Positions 5,640 through 61,700 of a stretch of DNA of 64,000 nt are shown piece after piece; the stretch's first letter is position 1, and each line of letters opens with the position of its first letter. The stretch covers positions 61,635-125,634 of IMG/VR virus record IMGVR_UViG_3300045988_101018. One strand, given 5' to 3'. The DNA is from a virus. A program made the translations under genes and the position numbers. The notes under the pieces are model-generated. The model was not told the DNA's origin, ran no database searches, and saw only the letters and a list, made by a program, of their open reading frames with translations.

Positions 5640-6030
5640 CAGTGAGTGTAAGGTGTTGTATATTTGAGCCTAGTTGCGTAGACTTAGCCGAAGGAAATGG
5701 ACGATAGTGTTTAAGCAAATCCATAAGCAAATATGACTCAAATACATACAACATTAATATAAGGTATTGCTTAATTTAAGCAAATATAGGAAATCCCAAA
5801 CCCTTTGTCTATCAAGGAGTCATAATTACTTACTCGTTGTTATCTCCTAGAACTCCAAATGCAAAGCCCTTATATATATTACTTTATTTATATGGCGTTT
5901 GCAAGCCTGTTTAGAAATTTTACGCAAACGATACGCAACTGCTTTAAAACGTAAAAAATAAATTTGCTTAAATTTCTACGCAAATTGAATCTCTACGCAA
6001 ATACGCAAATAATGAATATAAAAAAAGACT
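5640..6030. repeat. repeat-rich non-coding region, candidate attP with arm-type sites (TACGCAA[A/C] x>=6 both orientations; TAAGCAAAT x4)
   Basis: no ORF; direct/inverted short repeats counted by eye; sits between tail-fibre operon and arm-binding-type integrase as attP does in lambda. Confidence 0.4.
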
Positions 6031-32952: not shown

Positions 32953-34107
32953 CTAAGAAATTAGAGCGAGAATCTTGTTTGCGTCCTCGATATTGTCAAT
33001 AGACTTGGGGTTGTCATACCCAAGATTCTTGACGGCTGCAAGAACTGGCTTAATCTTTGCAATGTCAGACTTGTTCTCAGTAAAGAAATCAACAATCTGA
33101 GCAACTACATCATCCACAGCAGCCTGAGACTTAGCCTGCTCTTCCTGCTCGGCAACGCGCTTCTCAAGCTCCTTCTCCTGCTTAGCCTGCTTCTTCTTAG
33201 CTGTATCAAGTGACACGCCAGACTTAGACTGCTCAGACTTGATTGCGTCTGTAAGCGCCTGAATAAATGCATCTGCATTCATATCAATCTCTGGAATGAT
33301 ATTAGCAAAACGAGAACCAGAATCAACAGCGTAGTTATCGTCACGGAACTTAATCTTGCGCGACTCTGACGCGACCTTGTTTACAGTCTCGTCCTTCTTT
33401 GTCACAGCGTTCTTGCGCCCAGTCTTCTCCTTGATAACATCACGGTCAATGTATGCTAGACCAAGGAAGTGTAGATTCTTCTTAAGCGCGTTAAAATAAT
33501 TCTGCTGCTGATCTGAAGTAAGAATCTGATAAGACTCACCAGAGACTACATCAGAAATCTCTTTCGTCTTAACATGCCCGATGATAATAGAAGCAACTCC
33601 AACATTACGAAGTCGAGCCATCATATCAAACATAATCTCAATGGCCTTTTTCTCACCGCGACCATAGCCAGACCACGCCTGATTAATGCTCTTTACACAC
33701 TTCTCGGCATGTCCGCTATTGCGGCACTCCTTGTTCCACATATCGATTGACTTCTGTTCCGCAATGTCAATCAGGTGGTCATATGTATCGAAAATTACCG
33801 CCTTAAGATTGGGATACTCGCTAGTCTTATTCTCGATAATATCCTCACAAACATCAGCTAGACCAGCGCTGTTTGTAAGCTCATCATAATCCATATCCCA
33901 CTCAGGACAGTTAATATAGTTAATTCCCTGAATGGCATCGGCTCCTCGCTCAGTGCCACATTCTAGGAACAGATAGCCGTCATCGCCTGCAAGCTTCTCA
34001 CAAACCTCTTTCATAAGGGTAGTCTTACCAACTTTAGACTCGCCAAGAAGACAAATGTTATATGCAAGAGGGTCTAAACGCACATTATTTTTTTTACCAA
34101 ACGCCAT
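32953..34107 (-). CDS. AAA_24-like phage ATPase (Walker A LLGESKVGKTT), replication/recombination module
   Basis: 384 aa; P-loop near N-terminus; Lys/Glu-rich C-terminal coiled region. Confidence 0.6.
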   Translation of the reverse strand: MAFGKKNNVRLDPLAYNICLLGESKVGKTTLMKEVCEKLAGDDGYLFLECGTERGADAIQGINYINCPEWDMDYDELTNSAGLADVCEDIIENKTSEYPNLKAVIFDTYDHLIDIAEQKSIDMWNKECRNSGHAEKCVKSINQAWSGYGRGEKKAIEIMFDMMARLRNVGVASIIIGHVKTKEISDVVSGESYQILTSDQQQNYFNALKKNLHFLGLAYIDRDVIKEKTGRKNAVTKKDETVNKVASESRKIKFRDDNYAVDSGSRFANIIPEIDMNADAFIQALTDAIKSEQSKSGVSLDTAKKKQAKQEKELEKRVAEQEEQAKSQAAVDDVVAQIVDFFTENKSDIAKIKPVLAAVKNLGYDNPKSIDNIEDANKILALIS

Positions 34108-34143
34108 ATGTATTCACCTTTCTAAGATGTTAATTGAGAATGA

Positions 34144-34172
34144 GCGGGAGAGTTCAAACTTATCTCTCCCGC
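34144..34172 (-). promoter_or_regulatory. 9-bp perfect hairpin (GCGGGAGAG...CTCTCCCGC) in the 5' UTR of the ATPase gene, immediately downstream of early motif copy
   Basis: read directly; no U-run so not a canonical terminator. Confidence 0.4.
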
Positions 34173-34191
34173 ATATAACCTTAATAGTATA
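34171..34191 (-). promoter_or_regulatory. early motif copy 4 (TATACTATTAAGGTTATATGC) upstream of AAA ATPase gene
   Basis: read directly; followed by 5' UTR hairpin. Confidence 0.45.
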
Positions 34192-34197
34192 TATTGT

Positions 34198-35346
34198 TTA
34201 CAGGGAATCAAGCCAAGACATGTCCGAGTCATCTGAAGACTTCTCATCAGTATCAAATGGCGCATCCTCATCGCTACCAGTGTTAATTACAAGCTCATCC
34301 TCTTCATACTTATCATCAAAGATTTGGACAACAGGAGTCTTGTCATCGCCAACAAGCTTAATCACTGGCTTCTGAAGAATCATACGGCGCTCACGAGAGC
34401 CGCTTGCACTACACTTGGCAAGTGCTTCCTCCTCAGAATAAATACCCGCATCAATTAGATCCTTGATATCATCGGGAACATCATCCATTGTTGCGGTAAC
34501 AGTAGCTCCGCCCTCAACAAAGATACCATCAAATGTTACCTGACGAACATTCTTCTTAATCTTAAAGAGCTTATCATAAACCTTCTTGCAAAGCTCAGGC
34601 TTAGTGAAGTCCATTGGAAACTCGAACTGCTCTGTGAACGGATACTGACCATTAATCTCAGTACCGTTAAGCTCACTCACATAATCAAGAACACGAGCAT
34701 TCACATACATAACGCCCTTGTCCTTGTCAACATCCTTAAGGCTTGCAGAATCCTTATCAAGAAGAACAGACTGAGTGAATCGAGCATAGTACTTAGAAGG
34801 CTCATCTGCGCTGCTAAGAACAATGCTCTGAATAGTCTTACGAACCTGAACGGTATCATTGTACATACTGTACTGCAAACGACCCTTGACGTTTACGACC
34901 ATGCCGTCCTCAAGATGCTCCTGAGCATAGGCAATGGCATCATACTCGCTAAGAAAGTTCTTATAATAAGTCTTTCCAGTCGTAGTCTTCTCAAGACCGA
35001 CAACGATGAACGAAAGGTCGCCAACCTCATCTAGAATCGTATCATCAAAGCGGTCTTCCCAAGCAACAGTCATCTGCTTAGAGAAGTCATCATTGCCGTT
35101 ATCGTCCTTGCCGTGGGCATAGATAATGTTCTCGCGGTCTGGGGAATATCCACCAAACATCTCGGCGCGTACAGTACCATACTTCTCACCGCAGTCAATG
35201 TTAAGGCTCATAGAATTATAAACCCAAGAACTACGCTCACTCTGCTTGTCGATAGTAAAAGTATAATCATTTACCTTTACAGCGCCAACTAGAACAAAGT
35301 TTGACTTCCAGTCAGTCTTCTTAATGCCACTCTTCTCATTTGCCAT
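34198..35346 (-). CDS. putative ssDNA-binding / annealing protein with acidic C-terminal tail (DUF2815-like N-terminus?)
   Basis: 382 aa; acidic tail ...DEDAPFDTDEKSSDDSDMSWLDSL; genomic context with AAA_24 ATPase and PD-(D/E)XK nuclease. Confidence 0.4.
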   Translation of the reverse strand: MANEKSGIKKTDWKSNFVLVGAVKVNDYTFTIDKQSERSSWVYNSMSLNIDCGEKYGTVRAEMFGGYSPDRENIIYAHGKDDNGNDDFSKQMTVAWEDRFDDTILDEVGDLSFIVVGLEKTTTGKTYYKNFLSEYDAIAYAQEHLEDGMVVNVKGRLQYSMYNDTVQVRKTIQSIVLSSADEPSKYYARFTQSVLLDKDSASLKDVDKDKGVMYVNARVLDYVSELNGTEINGQYPFTEQFEFPMDFTKPELCKKVYDKLFKIKKNVRQVTFDGIFVEGGATVTATMDDVPDDIKDLIDAGIYSEEEALAKCSASGSRERRMILQKPVIKLVGDDKTPVVQIFDDKYEEDELVINTGSDEDAPFDTDEKSSDDSDMSWLDSL

Positions 35347-35372
35347 CTAAGATACCTCCGTATATTTATTAA

Positions 35373-35396
35373 GGCATATAACATTAGTTATTATAT
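35373..35396 (-). promoter_or_regulatory. early motif copy 5 (GATATAATAACTAATGTTATATGC) upstream of SSB-like gene, adjacent to ACTAATGTA iterons
   Basis: read directly. Confidence 0.5.
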
Positions 35397-35435
35397 CATA
35401 AGTACAAACTAATCTAGCAGATAATCTAAAAATTT

Positions 35436-35469
35436 TTTACATTAGTCTACATTAGTTTTACATTAGTTT
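35436..35469. repeat. three direct repeats TACATTAGT(C/T)T (iterons) sharing the CTAATGT core of the early motif
   Basis: ttacattagtctacattagttttacattagttta read directly. Confidence 0.5.
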
Positions 35470-35470
35470 A

Positions 35471-35908
35471 TTACGCCATCAAATGCTGACATGCAACATA
35501 GTCGATAAGCTCGTCAAATGTATCGCACATGCGCGTTGTACACTCAATCAACCAAGGATGCAGCTCAACGTTATCTTCGTTCAATCCAGCAACGGGAATA
35601 CGATTCTCCTTGGCGATAGCAAGCTCCATAGCAGTACCGATTGACGAAGGCGAGTTGAAGTTTACAATAACCAAGTCAGACCTGCGGACATTATAAGTCT
35701 CAAGCTCAAACACTTCGCGTTCACTCTTATGAAGTTCTTCCTCTAAAGTGTAGTGCATCAAAGGATTGAAGAACACGGGCATATAATCATACCTATAAAA
35801 ATCAATGCTCTCAAGAATCTTAGTGCGCACGTCCTTATGCCATTGCCACTGCTCATCACGACTAAGCCCACTCATGCCACCAGCAAGATAAAGCAACTTA
35901 TTTTCCAT
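35471..35908 (-). CDS. nucleoside 2-deoxyribosyltransferase
   Basis: 145 aa; LYLAGGM and SIGTAMELAIA motifs of the NDT family. Confidence 0.8.
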   Translation of the reverse strand: MENKLLYLAGGMSGLSRDEQWQWHKDVRTKILESIDFYRYDYMPVFFNPLMHYTLEEELHKSEREVFELETYNVRRSDLVIVNFNSPSSIGTAMELAIAKENRIPVAGLNEDNVELHPWLIECTTRMCDTFDELIDYVACQHLMA

Positions 35909-36170
35909 TTACACCATCCTTAACAATCTTAAACATATCGGCGATATCATCCATCAAATCATAACGCTCGGTAGACACAGAACTCTTAGCGAACTGTCGA
36001 TTAACAGCATCTACATACATAGTGCAGACATAGATTGAAAAAACACAGGCACTACTTCACTTCCCACCTAAAATCACCAAGCTCACGTTCGACTTCTTTT
36101 CTCCAAGCCCAACGTTGCTTGTTGGCGATGCCGTTCCTGCCACCTGATAAGAGAATCTTGAATTTATCCA

Positions 36171-36917
36171 TTAGGCAACACCTCTCACATTATCAGGCAC
36201 ATCCTTCTGGCTGTTGTCATAACTCCACTCGCCAAAATATTTTTCTTCTGCTTCTTTTCGGGCAGACACAGCATCTTCAAAGTCGTTAAATTTTCCTAAA
36301 TGAATGCGTTTATTATCTATTCCGATATACGCTTCCCATTTATCACTTTTCTTATTGAAAGATACACCAGTAACACCAGAGGTATTGGTTTGCAACAACA
36401 CTCTGTTCATAGCATTTTGATTTGGTGTTGCGATTCTAAGATTAGATTTCCTATTATCGAACCTTGATTTTTCTCCATGTTTGTGATCGATATATACCTC
36501 TGTGTTATCGCATTCCATAATAATTCTATGTAACAACACTCTATTTCTATTCTTTGGATTATATGCCGAAACATATCCCTTATTGGTAATAGTCCAACAA
36601 TAATCCTTTATTTTATCATAATCCTCTAAATCAAACCAAAATTCATTCCCATTTGATGTATAACCAATTCCATATTCGCCAGATAAATCATATGTATTAT
36701 ACTTTTTTCTTGCTTTTGCAAATGCTTCATCATGTAAACATCCGCACGATTGTGTATTTCCCGATGTTAACATATACCCAAGCACAGTTGCATAATTACC
36801 ACAATCACATTTACACAACCATTGCGACCTTTTCTGTCCACTTGGAAGAATACGATTCTCGACTCGTTTTATTATTGTTAGTCTACCAAATCTTTTTCCA
36901 TTTAAATCTAATGCCAT
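36171..36917 (-). CDS. free-standing HNH homing endonuclease with AP2 DNA-binding domain
   Basis: 248 aa; IDHKHGEKSRFDNRKSNLRIATPNQN HNH motif; C-terminal GVSFNKKSDKWEAYIGIDNKRIHLGKFNDFEDA AP2-like. Confidence 0.8.
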   Translation of the reverse strand: MALDLNGKRFGRLTIIKRVENRILPSGQKRSQWLCKCDCGNYATVLGYMLTSGNTQSCGCLHDEAFAKARKKYNTYDLSGEYGIGYTSNGNEFWFDLEDYDKIKDYCWTITNKGYVSAYNPKNRNRVLLHRIIMECDNTEVYIDHKHGEKSRFDNRKSNLRIATPNQNAMNRVLLQTNTSGVTGVSFNKKSDKWEAYIGIDNKRIHLGKFNDFEDAVSARKEAEEKYFGEWSYDNSQKDVPDNVRGVA

Positions 36918-37807
36918 TATTCATTTACTTTCTTAAACATGTCCGCAATATCGTCCGTTATTGGGAATCGCTCTACAGATACGGAACTTTTTGCAAATTC
37001 TCGTTTAACACTATCTACGTATAAAGAAAATTTACCATCATCACCCATATAAAATTCTTTATAGTCTTTATCACTCATAAGGCGCTTAGGTTCAAGCTGC
37101 TTAATTGCAAGGTTATCAAAACTAATGCACTTAAACCAACCATCGTTCACAATCTTAGGTAGCATATCATAGAACTGGGATTTTAGATAATCAATTTGGC
37201 TACCGCACTCATCATATAGGGTTTTGCCACGCCTAAAATCCTTATATCCAAGAATGAGAATCTTCAAATCATTATTGGCAAGGGCTTCTAGACCGTCCAT
37301 ATGCACAATACCGTTAATAACATGAACAACAGCATTTGGAAATTGCTTGATTGCTTCAATGCAATTGCTATGACGGCCACCGATATATGAGATACCAAGA
37401 CCATAGATTAACTTATTATCAGTAAGCTCTTTTAGCAAATCAATATTCTGCATAAAGTGCATTTGATTCACCGTCATACTTGCGATAATCTTACGCTCTT
37501 TAAGATGCTCAAGAAACTCAATCAGGTCTGGATGGGTCAAAGGATTACCGCCACCGATTGCAACCTCGCTATAGGGAAACATGGTATCGATAAACGGAAG
37601 GTTCAGAATATCGCCATGCTTCCCATCTGGCGTTGAGTTCTCGTGGCACATGTTACACGCCATATCGCACCTGTTAGTAATCTTAAGGTCGATTGACTCA
37701 GGCTTGATTGGGTTAAATGAATCCTTATCATTCCACCTAATTTTAGTACCGTCTGAGAACATGGTACAGGTATAGTCGTTGTTCTTATAACTGCCAAGAA
37801 TCTTCAT
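36917..37807 (-). CDS. radical SAM domain protein (CDMACNMC cluster), function unknown
   Basis: 296 aa; CxxxCxxC near N-terminus; glycine-rich SAM-binding-like GGGNPL. Confidence 0.65.
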   Translation of the reverse strand: MKILGSYKNNDYTCTMFSDGTKIRWNDKDSFNPIKPESIDLKITNRCDMACNMCHENSTPDGKHGDILNLPFIDTMFPYSEVAIGGGNPLTHPDLIEFLEHLKERKIIASMTVNQMHFMQNIDLLKELTDNKLIYGLGISYIGGRHSNCIEAIKQFPNAVVHVINGIVHMDGLEALANNDLKILILGYKDFRRGKTLYDECGSQIDYLKSQFYDMLPKIVNDGWFKCISFDNLAIKQLEPKRLMSDKDYKEFYMGDDGKFSLYVDSVKREFAKSSVSVERFPITDDIADMFKKVNE

Positions 37808-37815
37808 TACTTCTC

Positions 37816-38288
37816 CTAGCGATATCCATATGCTCCGAATGCAATCATATCATCACCAGACGGAGTTGTAAAGGATGTCTCATACTGCTCTAGTTCGTCA
37901 TTATATCTACACCAATCATCATATGTATAGATACCTAGGTCGTACAGTCTTGAATCCTCGCGGCTAGACTCTACCTCTTCGTCATCGCTATACTCCAACA
38001 TGTCAACATCGACAGGAGTATACCATTGCTCATCTTTATACTTCTCTTCATAATACTTTGCGTACTTTTCGATAGCCTGCTTCACTGCTTCTTTATCATA
38101 GATTCCGCTTCCAACACCATCAGCAAAACAACGATTAAAAGAATAGCCATATCCATCTCCATCAACAAAATAATATTCACCATGATTACTCGAAACCCAT
38201 TTATTAAAATCGTCTTTCGTCATAATACATAGTGAGTGCGTTGAACTTGAATTAGTCTCGAACACACCAGCGCGAATCTGAATCATTA
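37816..38288 (-). CDS. hypothetical protein, paralog family MIQIR(A/N)GVFETNSSSTHS
   Basis: start trimmed to internal MIQIRAGVFE; tandem paralog of next gene. Confidence 0.45.
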
Positions 38289-38296
38289 TATAACAC

Positions 38297-38878
38297 CTAG
38301 TTTCCCTTATAGAAGTATTCGTATTTCTCTTCATCATGATTGGGGTTTGGCTCTTCCCAGCCGTTGTGCCAATCCGTATCCCACTTCCAGATAGTAGGCT
38401 CTGCGGCATTGCACATCATGCCACCCTCGTCATTGTCATTGCCAGTATACACATGACTATCGCTAAAGAGATAGCGAATCAGCATATCGTCATTGTCAAG
38501 CACTGCATGTACGAACTCATATGTATCATATCCGTGGTCGATATAGCCAACATCAAGCTCGTCCCATTCATTTCCATCACCATAATCATAGTGAACTGTC
38601 TTGGGCTTTTCAAACGTATAGGTGATACCATGAGCATCGAGAATATCCTTTAGCTTATCGAGAAGCCCGTCTTTGCCACTACGGTCAAGCTCATAGATTG
38701 CCGTGTATAGATAATCCGCTACATCGGCATCTCCATTCTCCCAGCCAAACTCTCCAAAATGAAAGTCAACATGGCAACCATCTGCATCAACAGGTTTCTT
38801 GGAGATACAAATGCTGTGCGTACTTGAGCTATTAGTCTCAAATACTCCATTGCGAATCTGAATCATATCAATCACCAC
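38297..38878 (-). CDS. hypothetical protein, paralog family MIQIRNGVFETNSSSTHS
   Basis: 193 aa; shares N-terminal 20-aa motif with 37816-38288. Confidence 0.5.
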   Translation of the reverse strand: MVIDMIQIRNGVFETNSSSTHSICISKKPVDADGCHVDFHFGEFGWENGDADVADYLYTAIYELDRSGKDGLLDKLKDILDAHGITYTFEKPKTVHYDYGDGNEWDELDVGYIDHGYDTYEFVHAVLDNDDMLIRYLFSDSHVYTGNDNDEGGMMCNAAEPTIWKWDTDWHNGWEEPNPNHDEEKYEYFYKGN

Positions 38879-38880
38879 TC

Positions 38881-39000
38881 ATCCCAAATACCATAGTCTT
38901 CATTCCCATACCTACGAAGTTCATCTTCCTTGTGGGAAATCTTACAGCACGTATATGATACCACAATTACCGCCACCATAACGATTGCAATTACTATCAT
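38881..39000 (-). CDS. small membrane protein (~39 aa, MIVIAIVMVAVIVVSY...)
   Basis: below cutoff; ATGA start/stop overlap with upstream gene. Confidence 0.35.
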
Positions 39001-39413
39001 GCTGCACCCACCTCATTTTTCCAATCAAAATCATCAAATACATTGCCAATGACCTCAATGATTAGATTAATGTCTTCGCCAAAGCTATAATACTTAGAAT
39101 GCTCCCAGTCAAACATGAAATAAGAAGCACGCTCTTCGACATATGCAATTTCGACAGTAATCGTATTGCCATCCTCATGTCCTTCTTCCATGTCAACTGT
39201 ACAGATATCGCCTTCATATAGCTCGACACCATGTTTATCCACAATTCCTAGGCTTTTGTGGAATAAGTACCTATCTTCAGGCAATTCCTTCAATTTTTGC
39301 CATCCGAACACAGCGTTTCCGCAGGTCAGAAGCTTGTTTTCTCCGCATGAAATTAGAATTTTATCGGGGTCTGCCCATTCACGATTTTTTAGATCAAAAA
39401 CCCTATACGACAT
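38997..39413 (-). CDS. hypothetical protein
   Basis: 138 aa ORF. Confidence 0.5.
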   Translation of the reverse strand: MSYRVFDLKNREWADPDKILISCGENKLLTCGNAVFGWQKLKELPEDRYLFHKSLGIVDKHGVELYEGDICTVDMEEGHEDGNTITVEIAYVEERASYFMFDWEHSKYYSFGEDINLIIEVIGNVFDDFDWKNEVGAA

Positions 39414-39425
39414 ATAAAAACTCCT

Positions 39426-40367
39426 TTAGTGTGCGGCCTTATCTGCTTCATGTAGAATCATAACACACTGCATGAAGTAATCGCCCCACAATTTTTTATA
39501 TTTGTTATACATCTTCTCGTTGTTATCCCTCTCCCACACCCAAGGTTTCATGTGATTTGAGATAAGCGCTGAAACAAATAAGGAACTGATGCCAGCAACA
39601 TATGTAAAGAACAGGCTGTCATATGCACCTACATGTTCATGTCCATAATAGTGGGCTATGTCTGTAGTTTCGCCTTTGTTATTCTTAAATGTCTTACAAA
39701 ATGGCTTGCCGCAATCATGGATTAGCGCCGCATCTATTATGGCTCCAATTGAAGCGTGATGGAACCAATCGCTGCCATATAGCCAATACGCAGCCTTCAT
39801 ACAATGCACACCAAGGGTTGACTCGTGGTGCGGATTATCTTGATTATAATTCTTATAACTTAGCGCCCAAGACATTGGAAGTAATGAGCCGTTGCAGCTA
39901 CCTTTCCAATACTCAATGCTAATACAGTCAAAAGATTCATAATGATACGGTGTGTCAAAGCTTTTGTACATACGCTCAATAATATAATCTGGTACACGTC
40001 TGTCTCTGCTCGCATTATTTCTCAGACATTGCTCATATGGAGTAGCGGCGATGATACATTCTTTCCGACAAGGGATGCGTTTCAGCTCTTGCAAAAAAGC
40101 AATGCGTCTTTTAGAGCTTAGATTGCAAGCGTCATAGATAACATTATTACCTTCTTTTAATGCCGTCTTAATACGCTTATGTAGCTCTATAAACAACTCA
40201 TGGTTATGCGTCTGGTCGTTAATATCTCCGTAAAGTTCTTCTCTTAATTCATCTGAGCTGAATATAATATAATTATTTTCTTTGGCTAGATTATAAGCGA
40301 TGGTGGACTTGCCACTTGCAGGCAAACCCACCATCATCACTAGCACTGGCTTTGTGCTAGTCTCCAT
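39426..40367 (-). CDS. polynucleotide kinase (P-loop) fused to HD-domain phosphohydrolase (RNA end-healing enzyme, Pnk-like)
   Basis: 313 aa; N-terminal GLPASGKST Walker A + SSDELRE; C-terminal HD-domain residues H..HD..H..H..D. Confidence 0.7.
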   Translation of the reverse strand: METSTKPVLVMMVGLPASGKSTIAYNLAKENNYIIFSSDELREELYGDINDQTHNHELFIELHKRIKTALKEGNNVIYDACNLSSKRRIAFLQELKRIPCRKECIIAATPYEQCLRNNASRDRRVPDYIIERMYKSFDTPYHYESFDCISIEYWKGSCNGSLLPMSWALSYKNYNQDNPHHESTLGVHCMKAAYWLYGSDWFHHASIGAIIDAALIHDCGKPFCKTFKNNKGETTDIAHYYGHEHVGAYDSLFFTYVAGISSLFVSALISNHMKPWVWERDNNEKMYNKYKKLWGDYFMQCVMILHEADKAAH

Positions 40368-41546
40368 TTATTCACCAGCTTTAAGCAAGAATTTGCGGGA
40401 GACGTTCTTGAAACTGCGCTGTCCATCCTGACTACGATACACAAAGCCCTCGCGTAGACACTTCTTATTGATTACACTCTTGCCATCAGCAGACTGCTTG
40501 AACTCCTCAAAGTCATCAGCATCGGGCAAGATATAGTTATCATCAATAATAGGCACGAATGGAATATCGTACTCGGCTAGAATCTTCTTTGCTTCGACAG
40601 AACCAAGACGCTCTCCATCAAAGATTAGATTGAATGCTGCAAAGCGGCGCTCATCAAGCTTGTACTTGTTACCCTGTACGGACTCACCGTATGTCTCACC
40701 CTGTAGTACAACGTGCTTATGGTTATGCTTCTTTGCAATATCCTTAAGAGCATCCTCGACATTGTACTTGAAAGCCATTTCCCAGTAGACGTTTCCGATA
40801 CCAGACATATCAGAAACAAAGTTCTTCTGGTCTGCATCCATCTGACGAACATTGCGTGAACACACACCAAAATCAGGCTTACGACCACTCAAATCAAGGA
40901 AGAACGTAGTAGAAGTGCCATCAATCTTCTCAGTCACAACATAAGGATTCTTGTCTTCGAGCATGAACATAACATTCTCGATGCGATCCTCATCTGTTTT
41001 CTTTACCCATACAGGCCAATTCTTAGGATTGTCTTTCTTACGACCAAAGAAAACAAACAGTAGCTTGCGACCCCATGCACGCTTCATAAGCCACTTCCAC
41101 CACTTCTTCTTGGCAAGCTTAGAATTGCGTGCGCACATATTATTGTACTTGGCGTTGGGATTAGACTTAGCCTTACGAGCATTATCCTCGGCTACATAAT
41201 ACTTAATACCAAGCAGATTTGTCACGTCCTCGTGAACGTCCTTATCCTTAATCTCAGGGAACACATCAATGGGCATGAGAAGTCCCTGCGAATAGACCTT
41301 ACACATCTTAATGGTCTTAACCTTATAATGCTTTTTCTCAAGGAATGCAAAGCGCTCATCGTTACTAGGAACAAGCGAATCAGTCTCGATATACAAAGCC
41401 TTATCGCCTACCTTAAACTGATTCTTCTGGGCGATAATCCACCAGCCGCCGACACGTGCATGTTCAACACGGTCATAGTTTGGAATAGGCTTAATCTCCT
41501 CAACGATAACTGGATAAGCCAATGCACGCTCGCCATTTACTAGCAT
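40368..41546 (-). CDS. ATP-dependent polynucleotide (RNA) ligase, KxDG nucleotidyltransferase with N-terminal extra domain
   Basis: 392 aa; VVTEKIDGTSTTFF motif I lysine at ~215; stop/start overlap with Pnk-like gene. Confidence 0.6.
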   Translation of the reverse strand: MLVNGERALAYPVIVEEIKPIPNYDRVEHARVGGWWIIAQKNQFKVGDKALYIETDSLVPSNDERFAFLEKKHYKVKTIKMCKVYSQGLLMPIDVFPEIKDKDVHEDVTNLLGIKYYVAEDNARKAKSNPNAKYNNMCARNSKLAKKKWWKWLMKRAWGRKLLFVFFGRKKDNPKNWPVWVKKTDEDRIENVMFMLEDKNPYVVTEKIDGTSTTFFLDLSGRKPDFGVCSRNVRQMDADQKNFVSDMSGIGNVYWEMAFKYNVEDALKDIAKKHNHKHVVLQGETYGESVQGNKYKLDERRFAAFNLIFDGERLGSVEAKKILAEYDIPFVPIIDDNYILPDADDFEEFKQSADGKSVINKKCLREGFVYRSQDGQRSFKNVSRKFLLKAGE

Positions 41547-61399: not shown

Positions 61400-61700
61400 T
61401 TTTCCAGCCTATGATTTTCCAGCGCGTCAAATCTCCACAAATGCTCCACGGTTTCTCCATATTCCAGTCTAGGATTTTCTCCATGAAACCTCTACAAAGA
61501 TTCCATAATTCCTCCATCAAAGTTCCACGAAACTTCCATCAAAGCTCCATAGCTTTTCCATCAGATGCACATAAAATCTCCATCAAAGTTCCATAGATTC
61601 TCCACATTTTCTCCATAATTATGGATCCTCCACAATGTCTACATATTTTCTCCACAGCTTCTCCATGAAAAAATTACAGAATCTCCATAACTTTTTCCAT
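61400..61700. repeat. phased array of TCCA(T/C) motifs at 11-bp (and 22-bp) spacing over ~24 helical turns
   Basis: TCCA start positions 61434,61445,61456,61502,61513,61524,61535,61546,61557,61579,61590,61601,61612,61651,61662,61684,61696 measured from sequence. Confidence 0.6.

Follow-up and report, generated by a model that had tools for sequence, protein, structure and literature searches.

A foreign HNH-AP2 endonuclease cassette in a phage radical-SAM gene, with the native gene end kept downstream

How does a virus come to carry the end of one gene on both sides of an endonuclease gene, and which of the two ends belongs there? The question is raised by a 64,000-nt stretch of DNA (positions 61,635 to 125,634 of IMG/VR virus record IMGVR_UViG_3300045988_101018), which we call the window and whose coordinates are used throughout. 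All genes between 33 and 40 kb lie on its minus strand. There, a radical-SAM gene is followed by a free-standing HNH-AP2 homing endonuclease gene (HEG), by two short open reading frames (ORFs) and by a gene for a nucleoside 2-deoxyribosyltransferase-like (NDT) protein. Related loci carry the labels L001-L109, and those without the endonuclease at this site are called HEG-less. By comparing them with the window we found that a cassette of foreign origin occupies the 3′ part of the radical-SAM gene between two exactly placed junctions, that the native gene end is kept downstream of it, and that donor-type arrangements exist in related phages. We favour the reading that one break, repaired homologously on the left and illegitimately on the right, brought the 1,009-nt cassette into this gene, and we give it a probability of about 0.7.

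Two ends of one radical-SAM gene

In the order of transcription the locus runs from the radical-SAM gene (37807-36917) through the HNH-AP2 gene (36917-36171), a 39-codon ORF (36171-36052), a 31-nt spacer and a 40-codon mini-ORF (36020-35898) to the NDT gene (35908-35471). The features are as follows.

36917-37807, minus strand: radical-SAM ORF, 296 aa, ending in ...LYVDSVKREFAKSSVSVERFPITDDIADMFKKVNE and a stop
37035-37807, minus strand: native body of the radical-SAM gene, codons 1-258 to ...FYMGDDG, collinear with HEG-less relatives as far as GATGATGG
36917-37033, minus strand: tail A, the foreign 3′ end that replaces the native one in the radical-SAM gene, in frame (KFSLYVDSVKREFAKSSVSVERFPITDDIADMFKKVNE plus stop) and without a counterpart in 16 of 16 HEG-less relatives
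36171-36917, minus strand: free-standing HNH-AP2 homing endonuclease gene, 248 aa, recognised by PHROG match and motifs
36174-36206, minus strand: last 11 endonuclease codons (KDVPDNVRGVA), a probable fossil tail by alignment to L108/L104
36025-36171, minus strand: decayed 5′ fragment (~49 codons) of a foreign NDT-like gene, by homology to the resident NDT and to the L104 and L108/L109 NDT
36019-36024, minus strand: right junction CACTAT, a putative microhomology that reads as NDT (..L H/Y Y..) and as native radical-SAM (..F T M..)
35898-36024, minus strand: tail B, the displaced native radical-SAM 3′ end, which holds the mini-ORF (35898-36020) and extends over the NDT start, by identity to HEG-less gene ends
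35471-35908, minus strand: resident intact NDT-like gene, 145 aa, by Pfam and relatives

The mini-ORF downstream of the HNH-AP2 gene reads MYVDAVNRQFAKSSVSTERYDLMDDIADMFKIVKDGVNGK plus stop and is identical to the last 35 radical-SAM residues at 23/35 positions (BLASTP, E 2e-14). At the nucleotide level, tails A and B align without gaps at 71/105 positions (67.6%), with 29/35 matches at first, 29/35 at second and 13/35 at third codon positions, the third being near saturation. Their local alignment score is 39, compared to 8.0 +/- 1.3 (maximum 15) in 2000 shuffles, and the best unrelated 105-nt segment across the 64 kb reaches 53 matches. A nucleotide repeat search of the window reported only the short families D4 and D7 and not the tail A/tail B pair, which is too diverged for it. 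The 39-codon ORF is a second duplicated fragment, matching the start of the resident NDT gene with 9/31 identical residues and 20/31 positives (E 1e-6). Therefore the whole junction between radical-SAM end and NDT start is repeated, with the endonuclease inside the first copy.

A first-pass annotation of this DNA had described the radical-SAM tail as recurring in a 40-codon mini-ORF, the two copies flanking the HNH-AP2 gene, and the alignments above bear this out. The similarity it expected between the two segments is indeed beyond chance, and the comparison it suggested with HEG-less relatives shows 16 of 16 lacking the endonuclease at this site. Its mini-ORF coordinates (35909-36031) were 11 nt off, and the other details it quoted were correct. 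Which copy is native, and the NDT 5′ fragment in the insert, were points it did not contain.

To tell the two copies apart we compared 16 related IMG/VR loci whose radical-SAM proteins are 76-94% identical to that of the window. In all of them the radical-SAM gene has 300 codons, ends in the sequence of the mini-ORF and has 8 nt in common with the NDT start. The mini-ORF equals the gene end of HEG-less L001, L004 and L006 at 100% (40/40 residues) and that of L014 over 39/40 residues; therefore tail B is native and the in-frame tail A is foreign. Tail A is nucleotide-identical to the corresponding tail of L107 and nearly so to those of L100-L103, all of which carry the endonuclease. Among the loci compared, the clade with 78-100% identical endonucleases (the window, L097-L103 and L107) has tail A and every HEG-less allele has tail B, and the more distant L104 has a different foreign tail. 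The tail B copies of L098 and L099 have variants specific to their respective backgrounds. Between tails A and B, 22/35 third, 6/35 first and 6/35 second codon positions differ, and this third-position bias indicates that they come from long-separated functional genes and not from a recent local duplication. Duplication of the junction in situ was also considered as an origin and was ruled out, since the pattern of divergence speaks against it and the two copies have different nearest relatives.

The genes on either side are native as well. The nearest neighbour of the radical-SAM body is HEG-less L001 (3.0% nucleotide divergence), and the protein matches Pfam Radical_SAM (E 1e-7) and PHROG 16999, Fe-S oxidoreductase (E 3e-47). 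The resident NDT protein is 88-97% identical to the NDT of HEG-less relatives (68% for L014) and matches Pfam Nuc_deoxyrib_tr (PF05014, E 2.6e-6) and Nuc_deoxyri_tr2 (E 7.9e-5), both just under the cut-off.

No Shine-Dalgarno sequence stands ahead of the ATG of the mini-ORF. The NDT ATG is preceded by AAGGATGG inside tail B, where AAGGA is the ribosome-binding site, and the best reading of tail B is thus a translation-initiation region for the NDT gene and not a gene. Ahead of the ATG of the NDT fragment stands GAGAGG, a ribosome-binding site supplied by the 3′ end of the endonuclease gene. Both the 39- and the 40-codon ORF have been called as genes in public assemblies. For annotation this is a warning that short ORFs beside endonuclease genes can be displaced or foreign gene fragments, and that the 3′ end of the host gene can itself be chimeric.

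The endonuclease is an ORF of its own, with separate start and stop, and shares a TAATG overlap with its neighbour at each end; at the upstream one, the TAA stop of tail A overlaps the endonuclease ATG. The protein matches PHROG 374 and 99, 'HNH endonuclease', with E 6e-45 and 5e-41. Its HNH motif is intact, with IDH (residues 143-145), DNRKSNLR (154-161) and TPNQN (164-168) encoded at 36390-36536; a putative C-terminal AP2-like DNA-binding domain is encoded at 36243-36380 and a Cys cluster at 36732-36818. A protein-database search gave 5,448 homologues; homologues carry precomputed PF13392, and many carry PF00847. A PDB sequence search gave only weak, uninformative matches to plant AP2/ERF domains (E 0.1-0.6). 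Judged by its sequence, the enzyme belongs with the phage HNH-AP2 endonucleases, the PHROG matches being strong and the Pfam domain scores sub-threshold. A search of IMG/VR with the endonuclease recovered relatives of 59% identity at most, and the window arrangement was not among them.

One HEG-less locus has an unusual gene end. L002 reads ...TTCACTTTATACGTAGACGCT... (SFTLYVDAV) at 5740-5790 and has a TTTATACGTAGA patch in common with the foreign tail A in place of the usual CACTATGTATGTAGAT. This variant could be a resistant form of the target or a scar of endonuclease loss.

Junctions of the cassette and loci of the donor type

In the multiple alignment the cassette spans 37033-36025 and stands in place of ~5 native nt (TCATT), 39 codons before the native stop. 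It consists of tail A, the endonuclease gene and the decayed first ~49 codons of the foreign NDT-like gene. The native empty site reads ...TATATGGGTGATGATGG(A)TCATTCACTATGTATGTAGATGCT... (in shorter form ...GATGATGG(A)TCATTCACTATGTATG...); for HEG-less relatives it is also given as ...TATATGGGTGATGATGGATCATTCACTATGTATGTAGATGCTG..., and for the L001-type phage as GACTATAAAGAATTTTATATGGGTGATGATGGATCATTCACTATGTATGTAGATGCTGTTAATCGACAG. With a slash marking the join, the left junction in the window is ...GATGATGG(T)/AAATTTTCTTTATACGTAGATAGT... (shorter, ...GATGATGG(T)/AAATTTTCT...) and the right junction is ...CAATCTATGTCTG/CACTATGTATGTAGATGCT... (shorter, ...CTATGTCTG/CACTATGTATG...). Position 37034, at the left edge of tail A, is an ambiguous Gly wobble base. 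Because only ~5 native nt are missing, both junctions map to one point, ...GATGATGG^(A)TCATT^CACTATG....

The NDT fragment in the cassette is 61-65% identical at the protein level to NDT of the L108/L109 lineage, ~63% to the L104 homologue (a hand count) and 29-32% to the resident NDT. In a nucleotide alignment with L104, a 1-nt deletion after ...DFR gives a premature TAG, and a 1-nt insertion in a T run restores the frame (...PVFF/NLCLH). A tblastn search with the resident NDT passes through the premature stop to 36019. Homology of the NDT type, which repeat D4 also traces, reaches 36019 or 36020 and native radical-SAM homology begins at 36024, so that the two overlap by 5-6 nt, CACTA(T).

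The endonuclease normally resides between the radical-SAM and NDT genes of related phages. A clean arrangement, in which a 296-aa radical-SAM gene with a tail of the A type is followed by the endonuclease and the NDT gene without leftovers, is present at eight loci (L107, L100-L103 and L104-L106). The L107 endonuclease is 98% identical to that of the window, and a native-type NDT gene comes directly after it. In L100-L103 the endonuclease is 78% identical and tail A has the variant SFSLYVDSV. L104-L106 form a more distant lineage with 72% identical endonucleases, and the gene order also holds in the still more distant L020 and L021. The clean alleles of the L107 and L100-L103 types are what co-conversion produces, and the window would be a variant in which the right-hand exchange failed.

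The L104 lineage offers a second view of an entry at this site, since L108 is a HEG-less relative of L104 (88% nucleotide identity on the left, 97% on the right). Here the foreign tail again begins directly after the GDDG codons. After its endonuclease L104 keeps the native last 12 codons (IKKMFDKVRSVA plus stop), which include a GAGGAG ribosome-binding site for the NDT gene. The HEG-less L108 radical-SAM gene ends in ...AAGGTGAGGAGTGTTGCTTAATGG, and the end of the L108/L104-type tail is IKEMFNKVRSVA plus stop.

The last ~40 nt of the window endonuclease gene (...KDVPDNVRGVA plus stop) align to this L104/L108 remnant in the same position and frame, and endonuclease paralogues elsewhere align only to about residue 238. 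Together, these alignments indicate that the endonuclease C-terminus probably contains the fossil of an earlier displaced radical-SAM tail of the L108/L104 type. On this reading, 1.1 kb would hold three generations of radical-SAM ends.

A further likeness lies within the same block. Close to where the endonuclease ORF starts, 18 nt at 36887-36904 (CAAATCTTTTTCCATTTA on the plus strand; ...LNGK...) match 35894-35911 at 15/18 positions (repeat D7); the partner is the end of tail B and start of the NDT gene (CAACTTATTTTCCATTTA; ...VNGK, stop/MEN). The likeness may be chance, or a trace of the original intergenic insertion site.

Spread of the cassette, its proposed entry and the alternatives

An identical endonuclease protein is present on 10 contigs from different samples and assemblers (ENA ERZ27272354 and ERZ27259482, Logan SRR29934073); three places are shown, and seven were collapsed as having mostly the same neighbouring proteins. 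All three shown have the window arrangement with differing flanks. L097 is identical to the window over 35400-37900. L098 differs from the window by 11.1% in the radical-SAM body, 5.2% in tail B and 8.9% in the NDT gene, and by 3/1009 nt in the cassette (Fisher p 2e-29, cassette versus flanks); for L099 the values are 7.4%, 5.2%, 5.0% and 0/1009 (p 5e-22). With 0-3 differences in 1,009 nt against 5-11% in the flanks, the spread is therefore recent. L098 and L099 have in common only the cassette with 35 nt to its left and 60 nt to its right. Neighbour-joining trees of the flanks keep the three genomes with the cassette apart and place each nearest to a HEG-less genome (window-L001, L098-L008/9 and, for NDT, L099-L006). 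As judged from these comparisons, the cassette has spread into at least three diverged genomic backgrounds. Tail B shows no decay and the NDT fragment has two frameshifts, which suggests that the cassette moves as a unit together with the NDT fragment and may gain a fresh tail B at each entry. We infer that endonuclease drive was behind the spread.

In the entry that we propose, the endonuclease would have cut a HEG-less genome during co-infection at or next to GATGATGG^(A)TCATT^CACTATG. The left end would have been repaired by homology, invading the donor via the conserved TATATGGGNGAYGATGG motif, which is common across lineages, even L104 and L108. Copying would then have passed through tail A, the endonuclease gene and the start of the donor NDT gene, the last being presumably too divergent (29% aa identity to the resident NDT) for a second homologous crossover. 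The right end would have been joined illegitimately at the 5-6 nt microhomology CACTA(T), the donor NDT being predicted to read ...TGTCTGCACTAT... at the breakpoint. The resulting composite cassette would disrupt its own target and subsequently spread as a unit. A single break is proposed because, on the recipient sequence, only ~5 nt separate the point of homologous exchange from the illegitimate join. As the genome keeps an intact tail B and would otherwise cut itself, the enzyme must recognise a site that straddles the insertion point and requires bases from either side. The predicted target of the HNH-AP2 enzyme is then ...GATGATGG^(A)TCATT^CACTATGTATGTAGATGC... in HEG-less radical-SAM genes.

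This account keeps part of the original annotation, which had seen here a homing insertion with co-conversion of the flanks. The gene is free-standing, it is polymorphic for presence and absence, and a foreign flank came along with it; co-conversion, however, replaces flanks and does not duplicate them. The view of the HEG as a recent arrival agrees with its recent spread (cassette 0-0.3% divergent, flanks 5-11%). The candidate cleavage site at the end of the radical-SAM gene has to be moved, as the insertion point is ~117 nt upstream of the native stop and is neither at the gene end nor intergenic.

Could such a locus arise with the endonuclease as a mere passenger, by illegitimate recombination between two co-infecting divergent phages and later homologous spread? 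Mosaicism is pervasive in the flank trees of these phages, the searches gave no direct donor, and cleavage by the endonuclease is a prediction from sequence, all of which would suit such an origin. We nevertheless hold it to be unlikely. Two unrelated crossovers would not be expected to fall ~5 nt apart, as one break would have them do; the left boundary after GDDG recurs in an independent lineage (L104/L108); the tract of low divergence matches the edges of the cassette within 0-60 nt in three backgrounds; and all 10 contigs carry an intact, identical endonuclease ORF. Considerably less probable is the combination of clean homing and co-conversion, as first proposed, with an unrelated tandem duplication of the radical-SAM/NDT junction before or after it. 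A duplication of this kind would yield two tails and two NDT starts, and clean co-conversion products with tail A do exist in L107 and L100-L103, but neither junction copy duplicates the other: between the tails 68% of nucleotides agree and third positions are saturated, the NDT starts are only 29% identical at the protein level, and the closest relative of each copy belongs to a different phage lineage.

A self-splicing intron, or an element spliced in some other way, would join the radical-SAM body to tail B and make the mini-ORF the functional gene end. Joining GATGATGG to CACTATG does stay in frame, with the loss of two codons, and the cassette ends in G. Against this, no Rfam intron family matches 35300-38000 at E <= 1, tail A continues the reading frame up to a stop codon of its own, and L107 and L100-L103 have the endonuclease and tail A without tail B, so that tail A suffices as a gene end; splicing thus appears very improbable. 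A chimeric assembly of two strains, which would account for a region mixing the sequence types of different lineages, is the least credible explanation and almost negligible, since the endonuclease is on 10 contigs from different samples and assemblers and the three places shown have the arrangement with differing flanks.

Several points weigh against our preferred reading of a single break with one homologous and one illegitimate end. That the endonuclease cuts at the insertion point is deduced from the adjacency of the junctions, and a recognition site wholly inside tail B would, if it existed, make the genome self-cleaving and argue for a site elsewhere. The proposal that CACTA(T) was the microhomology at the illegitimate join relies on homologues of the donor. 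The direct donor itself (tail A, endonuclease and an intact L104-like NDT gene) was found neither in IMG/VR nor in a 5.8-billion-protein search with the frame-corrected fragment, which returned only the 39-aa fragment itself; a degenerate DNA pattern for WAWRKEVE in IMG/VR found HEG-less L108 and L109 of the L104 lineage and not the donor. For the enzyme, Pfam HNH_3 scores 15.2 bits against a cut-off of 24.8 (E 0.017), and AP2, at residues 180-225, 22.5 bits against 33.3 (E 1.4e-4), both sub-threshold. L107 might be a deletion derivative of the window type, or have arisen independently. Finally, ordinary recombination after a single insertion could, in highly mosaic phages, supply part of the contrast between cassette and flanks.

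With somewhat less than even odds, the block may be a stable composite mobile element with its homing site inside the radical-SAM ORF. Its own replacement tail would give immunity and keep the host gene intact, the recipient's tail would be left to drive NDT translation, and nested fossils would be the record of successive jumps from one phage lineage to another, the lineages being too diverged for homologous repair on both sides. These fossils would be tail A, the older tail end in the endonuclease C-terminus, the foreign NDT start and the native tail.

Surrounding genes and comparison with known systems

The whole block is an endonuclease hot spot. A second site for HNH-AP2 genes is the gap at 34108-34197, between an SSB-like gene (34198-35346) and an AAA_24 gene (32953-34107), where the window is without an endonuclease. 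Paralogues 41-59% identical to the window enzyme occupy this gap in L005, L008/L009, L010, L098, L102 and L107. In 7 of 7 relatives with an endonuclease there, the AAA_24 protein is very divergent (50-70% identical to that of the window); in 16 of 16 without one it is 97-99% identical, and the SSB-like gene stays at 87-100%. Duplicated gene ends or flanks were looked for at this second hot spot and none were found. Directly upstream of its radical-SAM gene L104 has a gene with NUMOD4 and HNH_3 (2042-2614), and L107, at 1-995, encodes a product with HD (weak), NUMOD4 and HNH_3 (weak) matches where the window has an AAA_33/HD gene (39426-40367).

Two adjacent paralogous genes on the minus strand, 37816-38409 and 38297-38878, have no Pfam match and have the N-terminal motif MIQIR(A/N)GVFETNSSSTHS in common. 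The 197-aa ORF of the pair overlaps its neighbour, and its long form is probably over-extended, because relatives call ~156 aa from an internal Met. A promoter and terminator scan gave 18 promoter-like matches against 10.5 +/- 3.8 expected and no terminator, and is not interpretable.

In GenBank, the closest phage relatives of the radical-SAM protein by tblastn are those of Prevotella Lak megaphages (46-48% aa identity) and of the Microcystis phages Ma-LMM01/MaMV (41%), where the annotation is 'Fe-S oxidoreductase'. Megablast of 33000-40400 against GenBank phages gave no match, nor has the window as a whole, and blastn of 35400-37900 gave only ~165-nt matches at 70% in Lak megaphages and one of 116 nt, which are useless for synteny.

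Nuclease genes are found where genetic exchange has its boundaries (PMC2988022, PMC10448857), and ICP1 is among the phages for which an HNH plus AP2 architecture has been described (PMC10448857). The window resembles T4 SegB/SegF/SegG, MobE and the 'IPA-HNH' system of ICP1 in having a free-standing endonuclease ORF between genes, found in some close relatives and missing from others, and foreign flanks that travel along with it. It is unlike the T4 Seg/MobE and ICP1 systems in that the native flank is kept as a displaced fragment and not replaced, that the cassette carries a decayed piece of the donor's downstream gene, and that cleavage is here predicted from sequence. It also differs from a group I intron-encoded endonuclease, with no Rfam match at E <= 1 and with clean alleles that lack tail B.

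For the mechanism, the nearest precedent is one-sided homing of T4 introns, in which the second junction forms at a microhomology; this was shown experimentally (Parker, Belisle and Belfort 1999, summarised in PMC2988022), and it was proposed as a route into sites with poor homology (PMC2988022). The window likewise has usable homology on one side only, and its second junction may lie at a microhomology. In contrast to the engineered T4 case with its intron-encoded endonuclease, the window arrangement arose in nature, with a free-standing HNH-AP2 gene, and it went on to spread. Only ~5 recipient nt were lost here, whereas extensive degradation is reported for the T4 system.

In architecture the closest match is with the mobile-ORF gene hybrids of fungal mitochondria, described for Allomyces macrogynus atp6 and for Glomus atp6, atp9, cox2 and nad3 (PMC3630166). 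There too a foreign in-frame C-terminus is followed by an endonuclease ORF and by the native C*-terminus downstream, the native copy being near-identical to that of ORF-less relatives and the inserted one divergent. The mitochondrial hybrids carry LAGLIDADG or GIY-YIG enzymes in an organelle and the window an HNH-AP2 enzyme in a phage, which makes it an analogue in architecture and not a member of that group; the window cassette also adds a fragment of the donor's downstream gene and the probable fossil of an earlier tail. Our literature search found no phage example described in these terms, which is not proof that there is none. If the composite-element reading is true, the locus would be a phage counterpart of the mitochondrial hybrids and would illustrate a general route for free-standing endonucleases across lineage boundaries. 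Mechanism and architecture both have precedents, and the window is accordingly an illustrative case and not a new principle; its unusually legible insertion scars record, to the base, how a free-standing phage homing endonuclease would have entered a genome with flanks of only partial homology.

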